DNA from: a virus
IMG/VR virus record: IMGVR_UViG_3300010167_000003
Length of the DNA stretch: 64,000 bases
Direction: 5' to 3' (one strand)
In this document: positions 4,246-57,234 of the stretch, one piece after another
Layout of the letters: every line of letters starts with the position of its first letter
How positions within the stretch are numbered: position 1 is the first letter of the stretch
Made by a program: the position numbers and the translations under genes
Notes under the pieces: generated by a model
Told to the model about the DNA's origin: nothing
Seen by the model: the letters and a program-made list of their open reading frames with translations, nothing else
The model's database searches: none

Positions 4246-4390
4246 TACCCACAGACCGATACAAAACGTACCCACAGACCGATACAAAACGTACCCACAG
4301 ACCGATACACTTTACCCACAGATAGATACGTTTTACCCATAGATAGATACATGATGGCATGATTTTTGGGCTTACCCACAGACCGATACA
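4246..4390. repeat. array of six 18-bp direct repeats (iterons)
   Basis: TACCCACAGACCGATACA occurs at 4246, 4269, 4292 and 4373. Variants TACCCACAGATAGATACG (4313) and TACCCATAGATAGATACA (4334) also occur. Start-to-start spacing is 23, 23, 21, 21 and 39 bp. Confidence 0.85.
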
Positions 4391-4391
4391 C

Positions 4392-4422
4392 TTGACAGTT
4401 TTCCCAGTGTTTATGCTATACT
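4392..4422 (+). promoter_or_regulatory. sigma70/sigmaA-like promoter abutting the last iteron
   Basis: TTGACA (4392-4397) followed by TGCTATACT (4414-4422). The spacer is 16-19 nt depending on which -10 register is chosen. Confidence 0.5.
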
Positions 4423-4443
4423 GCGAGTACATCTTAAAAACGC

Positions 4444-4474
4444 GACAGTCCGACTCTCGACAAGTCGGACTGTC
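4444..4474 (+). promoter_or_regulatory. perfect 11-bp stem hairpin in the leader
   Basis: GACAGTCCGAC (4444-4454) pairs with GTCGGACTGTC (4464-4474). There is no T-tract, so it is not a classical terminator. Confidence 0.5.
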
Positions 4475-4560
4475 AGCCCAAGAAAGGAGTCACGGGTCCT
4501 TCGAGGGCGGTGGGCAGAATAATAGCACACCCTTCCTTGAGCGTCCACAGTGTTTAAGCT

Positions 4561-5448
4561 ATGAACGACGCGCACAAGTCATTTCTCGAAGTCTACCAAA
4601 ATAACTCAAGTAACCTGTGCCTTCTAAAGTTCACAGAACGAGTTCGATTGGAAGGGTTAGACCCCCAACTACTGCCTTTATTTTTGTTCCTACAGTCGGA
4701 AATTCTCCATCATTTGTTTTTAGTTGATAATGTTGTAAACATCGACAGGGCTAATTTCAGTAATTTAACTATCCCGTACCGCAAGGTGCTGTCACAAATA
4801 TCAGTACGTCGTAACACTAGGATGGTTATTATCAATAGATTCTTGGACTTAATCAGCCTCCTCAATGGTGAAAAGTTTTATGAAGTATCCAGAAATAGTA
4901 ATGTTGTGGTACTCAATAAGCTATTCCCTAGTTATTTGACTGAACTGGCACAGTACAAGAAGACTGCGGACGCTGACATCAAAACAGCCGGTAAAGGTTC
5001 AAAATTTATATCCACTCCGTTGGCGGTGCCGTGGTGTCTCATGACCCCGCAAAAACGGTTTACAGTTGCGGCATTTATGTCTAACTATTGGCTACTTATC
5101 AATTTTATGATGCCAGCGGCACAGGAGAGCAGATGCGTCTTGTTAATGGAGGGCGGGTTGAGCAGATATGGTATAGAAACCTCACATCGTCCAAACTGCA
5201 AACGTCGGTCGGAAGCGGAGCGTGTAGAGCGTAACATTATTGGTCCTATTGAGTCCTATGGTTTGTTTAAGGCAGAAGGTGTGGTTGGTAGAGATGTAGT
5301 GGCAAAGGTAACTATTGCAGACCCTCTTTTATATGCCCATACATTCAAAGAGTCTCCCCAACCTGCAACGGATAGTATCACAGCGAAGATTAAGAAACTT
5401 AGAGAGGTGGCGTCAGTCAATGCCAATGACCACAGAAGAAAAGGTTAG
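4561..5448 (+). CDS. hypothetical protein, possible iteron-binding replication initiator (cassette copy 1, gene A)
   Basis: 295-aa ORF in an AT-rich stretch directly downstream of the iterons. Paralogous to 5859-6512 (TPLAVP, NYW and LF..L.SEI motifs). The Rep function is inferred from position only. Confidence 0.6.
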   Translation: MNDAHKSFLEVYQNNSSNLCLLKFTERVRLEGLDPQLLPLFLFLQSEILHHLFLVDNVVNIDRANFSNLTIPYRKVLSQISVRRNTRMVIINRFLDLISLLNGEKFYEVSRNSNVVVLNKLFPSYLTELAQYKKTADADIKTAGKGSKFISTPLAVPWCLMTPQKRFTVAAFMSNYWLLINFMMPAAQESRCVLLMEGGLSRYGIETSHRPNCKRRSEAERVERNIIGPIESYGLFKAEGVVGRDVVAKVTIADPLLYAHTFKESPQPATDSITAKIKKLREVASVNANDHRRKG

Positions 5449-10201: not shown

Positions 10202-10278
10202 ACCTCCGTAGAAGGCCACCTCTCAAGGGTGGCCTTCAATGTTGACTAAGTAAAAATACCACGTATTTCTACGGAGGT
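10202..10278 (+). promoter_or_regulatory. nested inverted repeats (terminator-like inner hairpin inside a 12-bp outer stem)
   Basis: Outer stem: ACCTCCGTAGAA (10202-10213) pairs with TTCTACGGAGGT (10267-10278). Inner stem: GAAGGCCACC (10211-10220) pairs with GGTGGCCTTC (10228-10237). Confidence 0.45.
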
Positions 10279-10448
10279 GACACCATGTGAAATCATGATA
10301 GCATGATTGCAGTCCGAACGAACCTTGACAAAAGAATACTGTGAGAAGAAGAGGGATGCACCGTCGAGAGGGAATGCCCGGTGCACCCGTCCAGCTGGGT
10401 TATGGGGAACTCAGCAGTGACAATATACCACAAGATTGGGGGTCAGGC

Positions 10449-10676
10449 ATGTTTAAGTGTTTATCTTGTTACCACTTATTTTTTGAGATACAAATTAAAT
10501 ACCTTCACACAGAGTCCGCCTGTTGTCCAAGATGTAACGGTGAGTTCATCTGCCTACCAGAGTGTTACATATGTGGTAAGGCAGGAGTGGACTACGAGAA
10601 CATCCGAGAGCTGTCTACCAGTGGACCAATTACGGGTAAAGGTAGATGCGTTTTTTGTGGATGGGAGACCAGATGA
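10449..10676 (+). CDS. small multi-CxxC zinc-ribbon protein
   Basis: Contains CLSC, CPRC, CYIC and CVFC pairs. The start is uncertain because the ORF is open from 10341. Confidence 0.35.
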   Translation: MFKCLSCYHLFFEIQIKYLHTESACCPRCNGEFICLPECYICGKAGVDYENIRELSTSGPITGKGRCVFCGWETR

Positions 10677-10765
10677 CCCCTTGACAAATCATCATTCCAG
10701 TGTATATTGTACACGGATGCTGCAATAGACAGCGTTACACACAGTTCGAGAGGGGCGTCATTGTA

Positions 10766-11122
10766 ATGGCAAAGAAGGAAAAGGCTAAGAAGGAAACAAA
10801 GCAGATGGGTGAGGGTTGCGGTAAGGTTGGCATTAAGGAGTTTATTGATCTGGTAGCCGAGCGTATTGGTAATGACATGACCAAGAAGGACATCGAAGCG
10901 GTTGTCCGTGTAGCTATCCTGGACGTCATGTTCGACAGCTTGGTCAAGAGACGTGAGGTTGGGTTCACCGGCCTGTTCAGTTTGGTGCCGAAGCTTCGCG
11001 CTGCTCGCCAGGGTAGAAACCCGCAGAAGCCGGAAGAGACCATCACCATTCCTGAGAAGTGGACTGTCACGCTGAAGATGGGCAAAGACCTGAAAGAGCA
11101 GATAAACAGCAGGAAGAAGTAA
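10766..11122 (+). CDS. HU/IHF-family DNA-binding protein
   Basis: RQGRNPQKPEETITIPEKWTVTLKMGKDLKE matches the HU arm signature (GRNP..GE.I.I....V.FK.GK.LK). The N-terminus is Lys-rich. Confidence 0.8.
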   Translation: MAKKEKAKKETKQMGEGCGKVGIKEFIDLVAERIGNDMTKKDIEAVVRVAILDVMFDSLVKRREVGFTGLFSLVPKLRAARQGRNPQKPEETITIPEKWTVTLKMGKDLKEQINSRKK

Positions 11123-11358
11123 GAATGTTTTGCGCGTCACCTGCGCGGTCATTGAGTCCCGAAGTGGTGAGGAAACAGCTCGTCCTCAGCTGACTGAGAT
11201 GGAGCGAATGCGGAATGAGAGTGTCGGCCCTGGTTCGGGTAGTAGTCCAGGCTAGACGACCATAACGAAAATGCCCGACGTTGATGGTCAAGCAGCGCCT
11301 TTGCAAAGGCGTTGTTAAGAGGGGTTCCCTGCGTCATCCAGGGAACCCTTCATTTTTT
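11123..11358 (+). ncRNA. candidate structured non-coding RNA or long 3' UTR
   Basis: About 200 nt with no plausible ORF. It has several stems, including the 16-nt palindrome CGCCTTTGCAAAGGCG (11296-11311), and ends at a strong terminator. Confidence 0.2.
11322..11358 (+). terminator. intrinsic terminator
   Basis: GGGTTCCCTG (11322-11331) pairs with CAGGGAACCC (11339-11348), followed by TTCATTTTTT. Confidence 0.75.
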
Positions 11359-11373
11359 AGGGGGAGGTATTTA

Positions 11374-11661
11374 ATGAGTGACGACCGGCTGAAGGTCAAG
11401 AATAGATACAATGAAAAGGAGAGCCCAATTAGGATGTACCAAGATGTCTGTGAGTTATGTGGTATGAAGAGCCCAACCCTCCAACAGAGAATCCCTATAA
11501 GTGTCAGTGCGGAAGCCACAGTATACGTCGGTCTCAGTCTAAATGAGGGTCTGTTGTGCTGGTATCTCTGTACGATATGCGCCGACAAGATACGCCAAGC
11601 TGTAACCGGCGTGATAGATGAGGTGTTGGACACAGCTATAGGAAGGAGAGATGAAGAATAG
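11374..11661 (+). CDS. small CxxC...CxxC protein (family member)
   Basis: ATG 11374 after GGGGGAGG. Contains VCELCGMKS...LCTICADKIRQAV. Confidence 0.6.
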   Translation: MSDDRLKVKNRYNEKESPIRMYQDVCELCGMKSPTLQQRIPISVSAEATVYVGLSLNEGLLCWYLCTICADKIRQAVTGVIDEVLDTAIGRRDEE

Positions 11662-29038: not shown

Positions 29039-29047
29039 ATTGTAGCA
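29039..29047 (-). promoter_or_regulatory. extended -10 element (TGCTACAAT) upstream of the 2025-aa gene
   Basis: The reverse complement of 29039-29047 reads TGCTACAAT. It lies between the terminator and the RBS. The -35 is weak. Confidence 0.3.
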
Positions 29048-29054
29048 GGAAGGT

Positions 29055-29090
29055 ACAAAATAAGAACTGCCGGACCATGAGCCCGGCAGT
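29055..29090 (-). terminator. intrinsic terminator
   Basis: On the minus strand: ACTGCCGG-9 nt-CCGGCAGT, followed by TCTTATTTTGT. Confidence 0.7.
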
Positions 29091-29110
29091 CACACGTTGT
29101 TTTGGATAGA

Positions 29111-32336: not shown

Positions 32337-32417
32337 GGTTAATCTCACATCCTTTAGAATTTAGTGTTTCATAATTTGTAAGTATACCCCAACTATAGCA
32401 TCACCATCCCGTTGGGG

Positions 32418-50200: not shown

Positions 50201-50362
50201 AGTCTCCAAGGCAAAATGAACATTCGATGTTCGGACAGGCCGGTTGTCAAACTCCTGCTCCGTTTCCGTAGTTCTGATGTCCACTATGGTTTTCCGACCA
50301 AGTAGATGGTCGATTATCATTAAAATGTGGCCGTTCAGTGCCAATGAGTTCACCCCTACCAA
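47288..50362 (-). CDS. 1024-aa parallel beta-helix tailspike-like protein
   Basis: PbH1-like rungs: IRGARGDGILLDGSSYVFIQDSDISNCAGNGISM. The N-terminal region is paralogous to 20902-22914. The start codon is uncertain. Confidence 0.75.
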   Translation of the reverse strand: MVGVNSLALNGHILMIIDHLLGRKTIVDIRTTETEQEFDNRPVRTSNVHFALETGKTTDIVLDEFTCSAYTPEVWDRVRVSGGRVQWFAWIFEMEAQDSPPLRPYEAKECDPGIIDESGTNSCRWAMLCVFKNVLTDEPYLDWEYGEVGGPYPFIPHNGVPLALIKYDPGPRPQITEDDIINLRTVKAEYAPAGYYIFPPVREHEDLYERYTRDVPDGAVSFVINEAQWYFHENGEWGAQGRIRFENTSYSKDIMQETSRVDIPWILKSSAELAVYRDGLKMDPRNDYEVHLGAAPYVLFNYLLYPHQRILMFRNPFAADAYSADAINNMANRLEIWVDGEVGHDAFPGSEDMPFKTLQMAFNSIPLSSRFTVIVRARRLKYADVIISNEYGQRSWGILNNRLMHRFMIFIEPNCEWQPDIDYAFVITQSSFIYFDRIMPPYKFRLNSCISYFFRSEFESHAVLAGGHSVVRDADAKRQSALQISGACIAIIESSYIYHLIGTAAGYSTAVGSRFSAIQSASSAAMYFDNCDFLESVNVTNAYFHIIQSRIARECTGIFDAANVQAVNLLMIGEANAPSRTFFDMQNGSKLTLVAAEIRDVAPNAIRLTANSVAALRGVVIRGARGDGILLDGSSYVFIQDSDISNCAGNGISMIRSCSGFAERLYGSANMHYGILARKYSSMNRGSNVEISGANGTYLEVIEGGNTVAATWGDLHVAPLDVKIEVGGGLRKEVRPTGIPDDARLWLFIDPADLLNPNSDFGAAFNFAPKASVATFTQPMAPNDVYDQDVIFVGEGYLSSVSQRSTLLTNENRTILTIDATEQAFLQQNRTLGTHFTPTGVTLRHRPGLGYATNFPYYFTSLWTSFSSIQSFIMNSLTGLTIQATTPPGTEVRVGISPNAGGTWLHYSGGAWAALPGQSTAARLASAPLFSVVNGYPPAAWEELRLLAHSYICVGFSLLTTSFLVAPTVHQYTWDFQLAGFQKDVTHLFERVYYPGRTVFRNISGQVLEPPLVFSVFPLSNRDA

Positions 50363-50396
50363 GCACGATGCTCTGATTGTACAACAGATAAAGGTA

Positions 50397-50436
50397 AAGC
50401 CGCCTGCCCTCTTAGGGTTCGGCGGCTTCTTTTTTC
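50397..50436. terminator. hairpin terminator separating operons
   Basis: AAGCCGCC (50397-50404) pairs with GGCGGCTT (50421-50428). There is a T6 on the + side and a T-rich tail on the - side. Confidence 0.5.
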
Positions 50437-50578
50437 AGCGGTTCAAAGCACCGCATTGGCTTCTTTAGGACCGGCGGGTGCGTCACTCCCGCCGGGCTTC
50501 GAAAATTGGAGGATGGATATTGCAATCACTCATCATGAGCACCTGGATATTACATGCCACTCCCTGCCGTGTCAATAC

Positions 50579-52875: not shown

Positions 52876-53478
52876 TTACACCAGGGGGCCGTGGGGCGGA
52901 CGATAGCCGTTGCCCCAGCGGGAATCCCTGTTATCCAATGCGGTTTCCAGGAAGGTGATTCTGGCTTCCCTCCGGCGGTCCTCAGCGTCACGTTGAGAGC
53001 GTTCGAAGGCTTCGATGCGTGCAATCACGCGGTCGGTGTTATCTCTGCTGCGGATATCACTGTTGCCGATAGCCGTAAGGGTGGCCTGAGTGTTCTGGTC
53101 TATGGTCCGTAGAGTGGCCTGGGTGTTCTGGTCCATAGACCGCAGCGTGTCAAAGAAATACCTATCTGTGTTCTTCTCCTGGTCACGCGCAGCGGCCTGT
53201 ATGTCTTTTGATACGTCGCCGAAGTCTTTCAGCAAGTCCCACCGTTCGGTGTGCCCCGTATCAGCTGGTCTTCCAACACCACCAGCCAGCAGCGCCGGTA
53301 TCGCTGCTTCCAACCCAGTGCCGTGTTCACGCCGCCATGCGAAGATGATGACCAGGAAGATGATTACCAGGGCGAAAATCCAGCCCCACCACATGTTGCC
53401 TCGGTCTCTATCACCATCCATGCTTCCTGCAATCACAGGGTGATAGCCCTTGCCATGTGCGTCCAGTAAAGTTGACAT
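52876..53478 (-). CDS. single-pass membrane protein with coiled-coil ectodomain
   Basis: TM segment WWGWIFALVIIFLVIIFAW. An 11-aa repeat TLR..DQNTQA occurs twice. Confidence 0.65.
   Translation of the reverse strand: MSTLLDAHGKGYHPVIAGSMDGDRDRGNMWWGWIFALVIIFLVIIFAWRREHGTGLEAAIPALLAGGVGRPADTGHTERWDLLKDFGDVSKDIQAAARDQEKNTDRYFFDTLRSMDQNTQATLRTIDQNTQATLTAIGNSDIRSRDNTDRVIARIEAFERSQRDAEDRRREARITFLETALDNRDSRWGNGYRPPHGPLV
53083..53148 (-). repeat. 2 x 33-bp imperfect tandem repeat
   Basis: ggcctgagtgttctggtctatggtccgtagagt / ggcctgggtgttctggtccatagaccgcagcgt. Confidence 0.8.
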
Positions 53479-53550: not shown

Positions 53551-53859
53551 TCATTTCCCGCCGGGGAAAAATGAACCTAATAACTTGGAAACACCAACCT
53601 GTTGAACGGTTTTCCAAGCATGTGAAAGGATTTCATTCGGGTGTTTGCCACGGAATGACTCCCACATTTGATTGTTTTGAAAGGCTGCTCCCCAGCCTTT
53701 GCTTTGGGCGTAGTCTTCTAACCACGACATGACTCCGTTCGTGGTGTTTTGGTTTTTACCAAGTTCGGTTACTTTGTTCATGACTTCATCGGTGTTTACG
53801 TCGGGCATTTCTTTTTTGAGGTTGCTCCACACGTCTTGTAAAAAGGCATTGATGTTCAT
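53551..53859 (-). CDS. hypothetical protein
   Basis: 102 aa with an ATGA overlap. Confidence 0.6.
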   Translation of the reverse strand: MNINAFLQDVWSNLKKEMPDVNTDEVMNKVTELGKNQNTTNGVMSWLEDYAQSKGWGAAFQNNQMWESFRGKHPNEILSHAWKTVQQVGVSKLLGSFFPGGK

Positions 53860-54464
53860 TCGGCACCGTCCCCTTCCTTCAGGTGTTTAGGGGTCCGTTT
53901 AGTGGTGGGCTGCTCTGGCTGGGGGACGGGCTGCTTTGGTGTAAGCATCTCCATGATCTGGCTAAGCTGGTTCTCGATATGATTTACCTTGCCAACCACA
54001 TCCAACGTCGCGTTAAAGTCGAACGCTGACGCTTGCGGTTCTGGCTCTGGTACTACCGGTGGTACTACTGGCATAGGTTGTTTGGCAAAGGATGCTGTGG
54101 CTTGCACCATCTCAGGCACTTTGGCGTTGTACCAAAGCAGGTGAATCTCCATAGAATCCATGTCGTAGAAGATAAATTTCTTGCCCTCTCCAACCAGCTG
54201 CCAGTGTGGAACCTTGTAGTTCCACGCTTCCTCCGCACTCTTTACCGGTATGAATATTGGCGTTTGCGGAGAAACAGGCGTGCTATTACTCTGAGCAGAT
54301 ACGGCCCCAGGATAGTTAGGACGGGCAGAATTAGGTGGCTGAATGGCATTTAACCTCTCCTCCAATTCTTGTTGACGTACATCCATGCGCTGCATGAAGT
54401 CATAGATGTCGTAGTACGACGATTGACGATGTGACATTGAGCTCCCTCCTCCGAAAAAAGACAA
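53856..54464 (-). CDS. hypothetical protein with Pro-rich segments
   Basis: 202 aa. Very strong RBS (GGAGGAGGGAG). First gene of the operon. Confidence 0.65.
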   Translation of the reverse strand: MSFFGGGSSMSHRQSSYYDIYDFMQRMDVRQQELEERLNAIQPPNSARPNYPGAVSAQSNSTPVSPQTPIFIPVKSAEEAWNYKVPHWQLVGEGKKFIFYDMDSMEIHLLWYNAKVPEMVQATASFAKQPMPVVPPVVPEPEPQASAFDFNATLDVVGKVNHIENQLSQIMEMLTPKQPVPQPEQPTTKRTPKHLKEGDGAE

Positions 54465-54586
54465 AGTGACATGTGTACACGTGGCTAGACGCCAGTGTTA
54501 CCAATGACTTATTCAGTTATTTGTATTTGGGAGACTCCATTGATGTGATAAACCCTGCGAGAATCACAGAACTCTATGTACGCATA

Positions 54587-54615
54587 TTGAAAATGTTGTG
54601 AGGTTCTGCTATCAT
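54587..54615 (+). promoter_or_regulatory. plus-strand promoter inside the minus-strand arm
   Basis: TTGAAA (54587-54592), a 17-nt spacer, then TATCAT (54610-54615) with a TGC extension. Confidence 0.5.
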
Positions 54616-54656
54616 GCCTATGACATCTCCTGCCGGGGGAGTCTCGTAATACAGGT

Positions 54657-54682
54657 GTGAGGGGGTTGCGGAACCCCCTCAC
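54657..54682. terminator. strong 11-bp-stem hairpin shared by convergent transcripts
   Basis: GTGAGGGGGTT-GCGG-AACCCCCTCAC. There is a T-rich tail on the + side only. Confidence 0.6.
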
Positions 54683-54683
54683 A

Positions 54684-54806
54684 TCATTTCTTAGGCGGCC
54701 CTATACAATGCAAGCCACCACGCATGTTTAAGTTTCTGACAATATTAAGTGCTATCAACAGAGGTGTTGGGACAAATGAATGACTATTGGATGTGAACTT
54801 TGACAT
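54684..54806 (-). CDS. 40-aa peptide (MSKFTSNSHSFVPTPLLIALNIVRNLNMRGGLHCIGPPKK)
   Basis: AGGAGG (54816-54821) lies 9 nt upstream of the ATG. The stop abuts the hairpin. An own extended -10 element lies upstream. Confidence 0.45.
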   Translation of the reverse strand: MSKFTSNSHSFVPTPLLIALNIVRNLNMRGGLHCIGPPKK

Positions 54807-54887
54807 GCCAAACAACCTCCTGCCTTGAGACCTCACAAGCGAAGTGACTCGCTTGGCGGATTTCGGCCTCTGAAAACAGTATAACAT

Positions 54888-54896
54888 GAAATGTCA
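54888..54896 (-). promoter_or_regulatory. extended -10 element (TGTTATACT) for the small peptide gene
   Basis: Reverse complement of 54888-54896. The -35 is poor. Confidence 0.35.
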
Positions 54897-54999
54897 ACCT
54901 AATGAGTAAATTTGGTTGACACGACAAAATCCACGGATGTAAATATATCAACGCTACTTGGAAATATGGGTGTAAGACTCAATAGAGGATGTTGTCAGA

Positions 55000-57234
55000 C
55001 TAGAATGACTTGGTGTATGTGGTGCGTAAGAGCACAGGTTTCGGGTGCTCTTGAGAGGCGGGGCACGTCACTGTCACGTTAAATGTCACGGATGCACCGA
55101 AAGCTAGGCTGGGGATGGACACAGGGTTATCCCACAGGCTCACGAACTGGTAGTACGGGAAGTCCCAGTCGGGGTGCACGGTGATGAGCACATTCTCCAA
55201 CGTCATACGCATCCGGTCGTTGTTGGTTATCGTAACCTGGACGGTCTTTGGTACATAAGCAACAACCATCCCCACAACAATATCCTGCCCTCTACCAATC
55301 TCATTGCCTTGGAACCGGCTTACATACTCATGGGAAGTAACTTCGTACTTCCAGTTGCGGTTCGTGGAGACGGTACGGCCAATACCATGCGTCTCCGACA
55401 TGGACAGGGCAAGACTATACTCAGCCGCTGTGAACGGCTGGTAAGGAATCCTCATGGTGGACGGGTTTATCTTTACAACAGCGGGGTCCAGGAAGGTAGC
55501 CCCGTTGCTGAGCCCAGTAATCGTATATGTTTCTATCAATCGTCTAGTTTGATAATCCTCACCATCCAACATGGCTACATCATCTTGAAGGAGCCACGGT
55601 AAATGTGAGGAGCCGTACCACTGTAAGAAGCGGAACAGCGGCCACTCAGCTCTGGCAGAGTTCGACTCGGCATCTCTGCCAAGTGGCACCTTACCCCACA
55701 GCAAAGGTGATAACGGGATGTCCTTTCTCATCTTCGAGAAGGTAACATCAATCTCGTTGCCTACCGACAACATGCCATTGATTATGAAGTTGGGGTCATA
55801 TTTTGTAGACCGGCCAATATGTGAGGAGGCCACGTGGGTTACACCATCCACCTCGCCGGTATTCACATCGAGTACCACAATACTGCTGATTAAAACAGGG
55901 TGTTGTAATAGGGTACGGCACCACACTCTGTCGATCTCATGGTAATCACCCTGCGCAACCCATTCACCTTTCTTACACCGGCAGCACTTGCAACGTCGGC
56001 AGCACTTGCAGCAATCACATTCTTCACAGTGGGTACACTCCACCTCACCCTCCTCATTTTCGTGGGCGTGTGTGCAGCACGGCTTATCCTGACTGTTACA
56101 ACACACGCAAAAGTGTACGTCCTTATCATCGTGTTCGTCACACCTGCAACAGCAGCCACAGAGTATCGGTTCCTCATCCGGGTCAAGAGGTGGGATGGTG
56201 TCGTCATACTCCGGGCAATGTTTACAGCAGTTTTCACAATCGAAGCAGGGGCAGTCCTCACACCACTTCTCAAATTTGTACGCTGGCATATAATGCTTCT
56301 GCTCGGTGCACTCACATGGTTGCACGCAGCCACAAACTAGGCACACCATAACACCTTGGTATAAGTCCTTACACCAGCCCCAGTGTTGCTGCCACTCCCA
56401 CCGGCGGTCATACCTCCACCATTCACCTTCGAGGTATGACATGGGGGCGTCATAATCCTCTATCCACTGTTGCCTGTGGCTCTTGGTCGGTGGATCACTC
56501 TCTTTGTCTACCGTTTCCGTGGTCACATGCACGAAGATTTCCTTCTGCCAGTTCAACCACTGGCCGACCAAGAGTTCATTGGCTGTGGCAATCTTGTCAA
56601 TCCAGGTGGTCATGAACTCTTCACGCGGTGTGAAGTCCCACTGATGGGTATGGAATACTCCGATGGGTTGCAGGTGGTTTATCCCTATAACCAACTTCGT
56701 GCCTACCCGTGCAAAGACTGGTGGGTACTTGTAATAAGAAGGCCCGATGGGAATGTTTTCGTACTTGTCGATCACCATACCCGCCGTCTTGAATCGGTCC
56801 GGCACTAACAGGTGCGCTATGGTGGCCGCCTCACGGGGCCATTCGATTTCAATGTGGTCCCGCAGCGGTTTATGCGCTGATGGAATATGTATGGGACAAG
56901 ATGGTCTCCATGTAAACTCCCCGGTTGTGCAGTTAAACGCCACACGCTCGATAAGCACACGCCCCCATTTGTTGTGCATGAGGACATAGACCTCTGACCA
57001 GTCATCGGAGAGTTGAATACCAGCGCAGTACGCGCCGATTCCATGATGGCTTATTGAGAATAGGATGTGGGTGTTCTTAACCGCGCCGTCCTCCACGTAA
57101 CTCAGGTGTACTGGTCGGCCAGAAGCAATGATGAATCTGCGATCATCAAGACAGGCTATACCAGCATGGGGACCGACAAATGCCATGTCCCCATGCTGAA
57201 TAATTTCTTGTTCCTGTCCTGTGATCCAGCGCAC
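55000..57234 (-). CDS. 744-aa virion-type protein with central cysteine-cluster insert
   Basis: Long ORF. Residues encoded by about 55975-56343 contain about 33 Cys in about 120 aa (hand count). Confidence 0.75.
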   Translation of the reverse strand: MRWITGQEQEIIQHGDMAFVGPHAGIACLDDRRFIIASGRPVHLSYVEDGAVKNTHILFSISHHGIGAYCAGIQLSDDWSEVYVLMHNKWGRVLIERVAFNCTTGEFTWRPSCPIHIPSAHKPLRDHIEIEWPREAATIAHLLVPDRFKTAGMVIDKYENIPIGPSYYKYPPVFARVGTKLVIGINHLQPIGVFHTHQWDFTPREEFMTTWIDKIATANELLVGQWLNWQKEIFVHVTTETVDKESDPPTKSHRQQWIEDYDAPMSYLEGEWWRYDRRWEWQQHWGWCKDLYQGVMVCLVCGCVQPCECTEQKHYMPAYKFEKWCEDCPCFDCENCCKHCPEYDDTIPPLDPDEEPILCGCCCRCDEHDDKDVHFCVCCNSQDKPCCTHAHENEEGEVECTHCEECDCCKCCRRCKCCRCKKGEWVAQGDYHEIDRVWCRTLLQHPVLISSIVVLDVNTGEVDGVTHVASSHIGRSTKYDPNFIINGMLSVGNEIDVTFSKMRKDIPLSPLLWGKVPLGRDAESNSARAEWPLFRFLQWYGSSHLPWLLQDDVAMLDGEDYQTRRLIETYTITGLSNGATFLDPAVVKINPSTMRIPYQPFTAAEYSLALSMSETHGIGRTVSTNRNWKYEVTSHEYVSRFQGNEIGRGQDIVVGMVVAYVPKTVQVTITNNDRMRMTLENVLITVHPDWDFPYYQFVSLWDNPVSIPSLAFGASVTFNVTVTCPASQEHPKPVLLRTTYTKSF

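Follow-up and report, generated by a model that had tools for sequence, protein, structure and literature searches.

A candidate ~70-nt cis-antisense RNA opposite a small open reading frame at an operon boundary of a large phage from the termite gut

Introduction

What does the largest gap in the minus-strand arm of a large phage genome encode, if it encodes anything? The gap in question (54438-54999, 562 bp) lies in virus record IMGVR_UViG_3300010167_000003, of which a stretch of 64,000 nt, here called the window, was analysed. It separates a Cys-rich open reading frame (ORF) of 744 amino acids (aa; 55000-57234) from an ORF of 193 aa with its ATG at 54437, and the ENA gene caller called zero genes within it. 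An original prediction, made from the letters of the sequence, had placed a type I toxin-antitoxin module here, with a 40-codon minus-strand frame (ORF40) as the toxin gene, a short converging plus-strand RNA as the antitoxin, and one hairpin shared by both. The reading that we favour, and to which we give an even chance, is a cis-antisense regulatory RNA of ~70 nt at an operon boundary, with a mechanism that we propose below. It is reasonable to assume that such an RNA would control ORF40 and/or its operon.

Predicted antisense RNA

The locus comprises the following elements:

54587..54615, plus strand: near-consensus promoter of the sigma-70/sigma-A type, TTGAAA-17-TGcTATCAT, the best in the window
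54622..54692, plus strand: predicted cis-antisense RNA of ~70 nt, consisting of a stem-loop (54622-54643), a 10-nt linker and a terminator hairpin with its T-tract at 54686-54692
54622..54649, plus strand: 5' arm of this RNA with CUCCUGCC (54627-54634), predicted to pair imperfectly over 25 bp with the ORF40 leader and Shine-Dalgarno (SD) region (54838-54811)
54654..54685, both strands: strongest hairpin of the window; its plus-strand stem has 14 bp (-26.0 kcal/mol), its minus-strand stem 12 bp (-21.8 kcal/mol)
54684..54806 including the stop, minus strand: ORF40, MSKFTSNSHSFVPTPLLIALNIVRNLNMRGGLHCIGPPKK, 40 codons, ATG at 54806 and TGA at 54686-54684
54816..54821, minus strand: SD sequence AGGAGG, 9 nt before the ORF40 ATG
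53856..54437, minus strand: orphan gene of 193 aa, the first large cistron downstream of the hairpin

Loose consensus scans matched promoters and terminators at chance frequency everywhere, and we therefore used stricter tests. The plus-strand promoter, which the original prediction had read exactly, matches five of six positions in each hexamer and has the TG extension. Promoters of this quality are expected 0.4 times per 64 kb and were seen in 0.8% of Markov copies of the gap; the site at 54587-54615 is the sole intergenic one. The claim that it is the only plus-strand promoter of that arm holds under these strict criteria, but not under the loose scan, which matches many plus-strand sites inside genes. 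Extended -10 elements (TGnTAnnnT, at least 5/6) are genuine signals in this phage genome: nine of 14 fall within the intergenic 11.5% of the window (binomial P = 4e-6), and three lie in the gap.

The promoter is located 39 nt upstream of the hairpin, and this arrangement is itself rare. A search of the whole window for a good promoter followed within 25-320 nt by a same-strand hairpin with a T-tail returned three pairs, two of them with a stem of at least 10 bp where 0.03 were expected, and 0/150 random windows contained two. The RNAs predicted from these two pairs measure about 69 nt (at 54587-54692) and about 75 nt (minus strand, 4434-4547). No further unit of this kind was found in the 6.8 kb past the right end of the window. 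These pair statistics and the signals themselves support the predicted plus-strand RNA gene running toward the hairpin.

The hairpin had been described with an 11-bp stem abutting the ORF40 stop codon; it is present there with the longer stems given above, and the stop codon overlaps its base by 2 nt. Together with those at 4444-4474 and 11319-11351, its stem is among the longest perfect intergenic ones. Which of the two strands it serves can be judged from the tails. That of the plus strand, ATTTCTT, has a T-tract score of 1.91, that of the minus strand, CCTGTATTACG, only 0.68, whereas other terminators of the minus arm score 1.5-3.3, and the terminator scan calls the hairpin on the plus strand only. 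Absolute d'Aubenton-Carafa scores were dropped in favour of relative values and the T-tract term, because nearly all sites are negative with modern energy parameters. Since a usable T-tract exists on the plus strand only, the hairpin would terminate the antisense RNA, and minus-strand transcripts probably pass through it from ORF40 into the 193-aa gene.

The RNA delimited in this way is predicted to fold with -37.1 kcal/mol (z score -4.5 to -4.7). It would be complementary to the final 9 nt of ORF40 and to the initial ~60 nt of the spacer that leads from there to the 193-aa gene. Were the ORF40 mRNA to stop at the hairpin, the overlap would be ~40 nt, at most ~43 nt (54650-54692), and it would reach 71 nt only on read-through. 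A second contact was indicated by RNA-RNA interaction prediction, a check that the original prediction had proposed: the duplex of the 5' arm with the SD region has -31.5 kcal/mol, compared with -20.8 +/- 3.2 for shuffled sequences (p = 0.003). We regard this pairing as suggestive only. As a source of the SD/anti-SD match, a diverged tandem duplication within the gap was considered and rejected, as the halves of the gap can be aligned only over a local match of ~23 nt. Rfam scans at gathering and E-value thresholds returned only noise (mir-1421, snoZ112).

Some further details of this region are worth recording. An ATG at 54620 on the plus strand, at or beside the predicted RNA start, opens a frame of nine codons (MTSPAGGVS, window 54620-54649), and a leaderless mini-ORF is formally possible there. 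An inverted repeat of 13 nt (12/13 matching; 54591-54603 and 54677-54689) connects the plus-promoter spacer with the 3' arm and tail of the hairpin; on a read-through minus-strand RNA it could form a long-range helix around the antisense target. Four of the 13 TGTGAGG heptamers of the window cluster within 240 bp (54597-54837).

ORF40 and the downstream operon

The SD sequence (54821-54816), the 9-nt spacer, the start and stop codons and the 40-aa peptide of the original prediction are all exact. Elsewhere in the arm, minus-strand AGGAGG sequences that have a start codon 7-9 nt further on mark the 193-aa, 263-aa and 94-aa genes, and with the start codon at 5-10 nt the motif otherwise flags real genes on that strand. 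Judged by these signals, translation of ORF40 is plausible. A frame of 40 codons behind AGGAGG-9-ATG is unlikely to arise by chance in a 562-bp gap (<1% by our own estimate). Its codon usage resembles that of spurious ORFs, with a log-likelihood ratio of -0.03 per codon, in the bottom 3% of 39-codon segments of real genes.

The peptide is basic, with three K, two R and zero D/E, and it has no transmembrane (TM) helix. The Kyte-Doolittle maximum over 19 residues is 1.02 (TM threshold 1.6), and the longest run without D, E, K, R, H, N or Q comprises 11 residues. AlphaFold2 (single sequence; predicted local distance difference test score 70) places one helix at residues 14-30, with a mean hydrophobicity of 0.15 and a low hydrophobic moment; R24, N25, N27 and R29 lie in its second half. 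No homologue was found in a set of 5.8 bn proteins, in Pfam, NCBIfam, PADLOC and PHROGs, or in six-frame translations of phage genomes (tblastn). The G+C content (GC) is 40% for ORF40 and 43.8% for the gap, compared with 51% for the window; this difference is weak evidence for a moron-like gene, because intergenic DNA is generally richer in A+T.

Scans of the minus strand between the hairpin and the 193-aa gene (54438-54653) revealed no convincing promoter, and the 193-aa gene is therefore probably expressed through read-through of the hairpin, across a spacer that measures 215 nt on the minus-strand transcript. ORF40 is probably the first small cistron of an operon that continues with genes of 193, 102, 200 and 93 aa. 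Most likely it is a small first cistron or leader ORF and not a membrane toxin. The 200-aa protein (52876-53478, minus strand) has one strong TM helix (19-residue Kyte-Doolittle value 2.59) and a long charged tail in which the motif DQNTQATL is repeated; it may be a protein of the holin, spanin or membrane-anchored assembly type.

Upstream signals on the minus strand

Upstream of ORF40, the minus strand carries four further elements:

54942..54950, minus strand: extended -10-like element P1, TGaTATATT, upstream of the palindrome and of doubtful function
54892..54921, minus strand: palindrome TGTCAACCTAAT-N6-ATTTGGTTGACA with 12-nt arms of 92% complementarity, present as a single copy in the window
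54878..54886, minus strand: extended -10 element P2, TGtTATACT (TGTTATACT), without a usable -35 element, with a predicted transcription start at ~54871
54836..54855, minus strand: leader stem-loop CAAGCGA/TCGCTTG of 7-8 bp (arms 54836-54842 and 54849-54855), near the 5' end of the P2 transcript

As minus-strand RNA, the palindrome forms a hairpin followed by TTTCATGTTAT (-13.4 kcal/mol, z score -2.8), and its tail has a T-tract score of 3.0 on the minus strand versus 0.02 on the plus strand. It is probably the terminator of the upstream operon with the genes of 1193 and 744 aa; alternatively, it may be an operator that overlaps the promoter. Since this terminator directly precedes the extended -10 element of P2, we take the gap to be an operon boundary with a restart promoter. 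P2 and the leader hairpin had both been recognised by the original prediction, the latter with its 7 bp, but at shifted positions (54888-54896 and 54841-54860). The stem-loop is part of both the minimum free energy and the centroid structure, and the TGnTATACT element of P2 also forms a promoter at 4414-4422. As a -35 element for P2 we rejected TTGACA at 54897-54892, which is a palindrome arm and lies 5 nt from the TG of the extended -10 and 8 nt from TATACT.

The order of terminator and then promoter recurs at 29.0-29.1 kb, ahead of a gene for 2025 aa. At this site (29039-29091, minus strand), a 12-bp terminator and CTTATTTTGT are followed by TGcTACAAT. Another minus-strand extended -10 element, TGcTATAGT (32392-32400), precedes a 270-aa gene.

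A second, mirror-image unit

The other promoter-hairpin unit with a stem of at least 10 bp is located at 4.2-4.56 kb, in the plus-strand arm, and mirrors the arrangement at ORF40. The region 4246-4560 contains an iteron-like array of six TACCCACAGACCGATACA copies with 21-23-nt phasing (0.02 expected by chance), which adjoins a promoter of the plus arm, TTGACA-19-TGcTATACT. A 14-bp hairpin (4443-4475) begins 21 nt past the -10 element and has its T-tract on the opposite strand, on which the following element also lies:

4547-4519, minus strand: opposite-strand promoter TGGACG-17-TG-g-TATTAT, predicting an RNA of 75 nt (unit 4434-4547)

This RNA would fold with -37.0 kcal/mol (z score -5.3) and, like the RNA at 54622-54692, it has CUCCU in a 5' hairpin and the same architecture. 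The unit lies upstream of an orphan ORF of 295 aa (4561-5448), and the region 4246-4560 looks like a replication origin or an initiator control region. Iterons combined with a countertranscript in the leader of the downstream gene are the classical layout in replicons of plasmids and phages; the second unit gains credibility from this, and by analogy it supports the unit at 54622-54692.

Three other sites of the window are worth noting. At 10277-10331, overlapping extended -10 elements stand face to face within the palindromic ATCATGATAGCATGAT. The plus-strand element is TGaTAGCAT; that of the minus strand, TGcTATCAT, is identical to the 9-mer of the promoter at 54587-54615. A zinc-ribbon-like plus-strand ORF begins at 10449, and a 186-aa minus-strand ORF (10592-11152) is perhaps spurious. 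The stretch 11150-11375 is highly structured over ~200 nt, with tandem hairpins and a 13-bp terminator GAGGGGTTCC...GGAACCCTTC ATTTTTTAGG that resembles the hairpin and tail at 54654-54685; it lies directly before an SD sequence and an ATG at 11375, and may be a non-coding RNA or an attenuator. At 50321-50578 (minus strand), a promoter TTGACA-17-TAATAT (50575-50547) precedes a structured leader of ~150 nt (z score -2.8) with three hairpins and a run of CCAUCCUCC, ending in a terminator-like hairpin (50426-50393) before a 1010-aa beta-helix tail protein. About 7 nt past the predicted transcription start of this leader, an ORF of 17 codons begins, which contains an HPPI motif.

Genomic context

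The window belongs to a metagenome contig of 169 kb (ena:ERZ27257304:k141_5678574), and the identical phage recurs in another ENA assembly as well as in two metagenomes of IMG. IMG metagenome 3300010369 derives from the P1 gut segment of the higher termite Labiotermes labralis (PMC7800795). Compared with positions 54400-55030 of the window, contigs L004-L006 show 100% identity across the gap, giving four independent assemblies (two ENA, two IMG higher-termite gut). In one further JGI contig, the neighbouring 1193-aa protein shows a single residue change (K860N). The carrier is a large unclassified phage of at least 169 kb, whose proteins are nearly all orphans. Its plus-strand arm (1-20.4 kb) encodes ThyX, an ATP-dependent DNA ligase, methyltransferases and an HU-like protein, and the minus-strand arm (20.5-64 kb) is densely packed with genes for very large orphan proteins and tail-fibre-like proteins. 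Neither an integrase nor a repressor was seen in the window, and nothing in it points to a temperate phage; a scan for tRNAs and tmRNAs found none.

Relatives of the locus were sought in viral, metagenome and genome contig collections, and none were found. Likewise, there were no DNA matches in phage and plasmid collections. A search with the hairpin as a DNA pattern gave only chance matches in high-GC DNA, one of them in a Streptomyces chromosome, and among 5.8 bn proteins the 193-aa and 1193-aa neighbours matched only themselves. For the C-terminal ~340 aa of the 744-aa protein, we found 16 distant homologues among 1.84 bn representatives, with 23-40% identity for those aligned. In the contigs of these distant relatives, the next gene follows the homologue after 0-10 nt and neither gap nor module is present. 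Gene order around the homologues (loci L007-L016) is mosaic, the downstream genes are unrelated to those of the window, and synteny is not kept. Locus L007, which contains the closest homologue, belongs to a phage very rich in A+T, and a canonical terminator follows the gene there. In another locus (L012), a 702-aa fragment two genes upstream of the homologue is 52% identical to the C-terminus of the 2025-aa protein, which in the window is located 30 kb from the 744-aa gene.

Discussion

Among known systems, the closest analogue of the predicted RNA is OOP of phage lambda, as a functional analogy only. OOP, an antisense RNA of 77 nt, terminates at a hairpin; it covers 52 nt of the cII 3' end and leads to RNase III cleavage (PMC5415839; PMC5869508). 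Here, too, a short RNA (~70 nt) would be transcribed from its own sigma-70 promoter opposite a phage operon and end at a hairpin terminator; it would cover the ORF40 3' end and the spacer, with no minus-strand promoter before the start of the 193-aa gene, and by analogy duplex-directed cleavage of the mRNA may be expected. The two differ in that neither sequence nor Rfam comparison showed similarity and phage and plasmid collections gave no DNA match, in the ORF overlap (9 nt versus 52 nt for OOP), and in the setting, which is a structural-gene arm with a 40-codon ORF as the target instead of the immunity/replication region. The potential SD pairing has no OOP counterpart.

Countertranscript RNAs, such as those of pT181, pIP501 (RNAIII) and R1 (CopA), are encoded in the leaders of replication or regulatory genes. 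They are antisense RNAs of 50-150 nt, transcribed from the leader of the controlled gene and built from a 5' stem-loop and a terminator, features that both predicted RNAs share. The second unit (4434-4547), placed between the iteron-flanked promoter and its gene, has the textbook layout, whereas the unit at ORF40 would control structural or orphan genes. Attenuation of the pT181/pIP501 type is not indicated at ORF40, because no mutually exclusive leader structure was found: the search for an alternative leader pairing with a downstream attenuator gave only 7-bp competitors, and the hairpin lies within or upstream of the target.

This leaves the question of what else the arrangement could be. 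If it were a type I toxin-antitoxin locus, ORF40 would be toxic and the plus-strand RNA would act as antitoxin through the 3' overlap at the hairpin and/or masking of the SD sequence. A small SD-led ORF (40 codons, where <60 aa is customary) does stand opposite a convergent short RNA with predicted promoter and terminator of its own, the two sharing the hairpin, as the original prediction had it, and the GC lies below that of the surrounding DNA, as for an acquired cassette. In Bacillus, txpA/RatA, bsrG/SR4, bsrE/SR5 and yonT/SR6 likewise combine a convergent small ORF with an antisense RNA overlapping at the 3' end. SR4 both promotes mRNA decay and blocks translation (PMC6562991), a dual mode that 3' overlap together with complementarity of the 5' arm to the SD region would permit here. 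Against this stands the peptide itself: nearly all type I toxins, including TxpA, BsrG, BsrE and YonT, have <60 aa with an alpha-helical TM domain (PMC6562991), and six known toxins reach Kyte-Doolittle maxima of 1.67-2.52, whereas ORF40 remains below the threshold and its predicted helix has four polar or charged residues in the C-terminal half. Moreover, complementarity at the 3' end usually amounts to ~100-120 nt, and SR4, SR5 and SR6 share ~120 nt with bsrG, bsrE and yonT (PMC6562991), compared with ~40 nt here, 9 nt of them in the ORF. The terminator favours the RNA strand, so that ORF40 is probably co-transcribed with structural genes, and its codon usage is that of a spurious ORF. The Bacillus pairs reside in prophages or prophage-like elements (SPbeta), whereas the present phage has at least 169 kb, and no lysogeny genes were seen in the window. 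The txpA/RatA pair is carried on the skin element. Family-level homology was seen in none of Rfam, Pfam, NCBIfam, PADLOC, PHROGs, the 5.8-bn protein set and the tblastn search of phages. With the TM helix and the long overlap lacking and no family homology, the type I claim is weak; we consider it unlikely, and the label should not be applied to this locus.

Marginally better placed, if still unlikely, is an autonomous gene like the morons, in which P2, ORF40 and the hairpin form a self-contained unit for a small basic protein, the plus promoter is incidental or weak and the hairpin terminates in both directions. Morons are defined by their own promoter and terminator and a deviant GC (PMC3594210), and like HK97 gene 15 (PMC3594210), ORF40 is small, follows a promoter of its own, differs in GC and lies beside a hairpin within a structural operon. 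The strong SD sequence, the hairpin placed at the stop codon, the 40% GC against 51% and the immediate succession of the next gene after the 744-aa homologue in distant relatives would all suit such a gene. In the direction of ORF40, however, the terminator is weak, with a T-tract score below those of the other minus-arm terminators, no promoter was found for the downstream 193-aa gene, and the plus promoter, which ranks first in the window, stands at the correct position for the terminator. An insertion relative to related genomes cannot be demonstrated, because synteny with the relatives is not conserved. The least unlikely of the alternatives is a plain operon boundary at which nothing but the promoter and the terminator(s) would matter, with both ORF40 and the plus-strand RNA as non-functional by-products of AT-richer intergenic DNA. 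It would agree with the chance frequency of loose promoter and terminator matches across the window, with the missing coding signature of ORF40 and with the fact that conservation cannot be shown; but a strict promoter and the strongest hairpin in the right order and on the right strand are jointly improbable, AGGAGG-9-ATG stands before a frame of 40 codons, and the antisense unit recurs at 4.4-4.55 kb. Improbable, and behind all of these, is an attenuator in which ORF40 serves as a leader ORF: a ribosome at the GPPKK-stop would cover the 5' arm of the hairpin and allow read-through, and when ORF40 is left untranslated (for example, with its SD masked) the hairpin would form and transcription or mRNA stability would fall. 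The overlap of stop codon and hairpin base, the complementarity of the RNA to the SD sequence, the seemingly unconstrained peptide (non-genic codons, no homologues) and a Pro-Pro motif two codons before the stop would fit this model. Pro-Pro stalls ribosomes in a manner that depends on elongation factor P. No antiterminator structure was found, only 7-bp TGTGAGG/CCTCACA matches, the poor U-tract on the minus strand may leave little termination to relieve, and the model is wholly inferential.

A bolder version of the antisense idea has two parts, which could apply singly or jointly, and it is likewise improbable. ORF40 would represent a new class of type I toxins, highly basic and non-membrane, in a large, probably virulent phage, and the RNA would hold it in check at two sites, by the 3' overlap where the terminator is shared and by masking the SD sequence in trans; and/or the two CUCCU-bearing RNAs of ~70-75 nt (plus strand, 54622-54692; minus strand, 4434-4512) would form a phage set of anti-SD countertranscripts that times replication and structural genes.

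We return to the favoured reading, a cis-antisense control point at the operon boundary, for which the following course of events may be imagined. Minus-strand transcription of the upstream operon would meet the weak terminator at 54892-54921, and P2 would restart it, producing a transcript with the 5' stem-loop, ORF40, the very stable hairpin, the 215-nt spacer and the 193-aa gene with its neighbours. The ~70-nt RNA would be made from a host-type promoter, independently of P2 with its missing -35 element, and would pair perfectly with all minus-strand transcripts crossing 54622-54692, that is, with the 3' end of ORF40 and the intercistronic spacer. Its 5' arm might also mask the SD sequence of ORF40. 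Duplex-directed cleavage or decay together with a translation block would lower or delay the expression of ORF40 and/or the downstream genes, and the convergent promoters would interfere with each other. Such an action would be akin to that of OOP on the cII-O mRNA of lambda, or to that of plasmid countertranscripts.

Several points weigh against this reading. All promoter and terminator calls are predictions based on consensus sequences. The SD pairing was assessed post hoc, after an 8-mer match (CTCCTGCC) had been noticed; it is partly due to a second SD-like sequence on the minus strand (repeat GGCAGGAG...GGCATG, p = 0.04), and the anti-SD sequence is buried within the 5' stem of the RNA itself. 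Despite its poor U-tract, the hairpin could terminate efficiently on the minus strand, which would make ORF40 monocistronic, and any effect on the downstream genes is purely inferred. Evolutionary support for the locus is unobtainable, since the four copies are identical and there are no syntenic relatives.

Conclusions

The locus calls for caution with annotation: a small ORF combined with a convergent small RNA is insufficient for calling a type I toxin-antitoxin system. The two units offer cloneable test cases in a genome of nearly all-orphan proteins, and their value is one of annotation, with no long-standing question being opened. An antisense layer of this kind is known chiefly from lambda, P22, P1/P4 and plasmids. 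Should the predicted RNA exist, large uncultivated phages of the termite gut would use short antisense RNAs from host-type promoters in their structural-gene arm, and such antisense control would probably operate at a replication-type locus as well.

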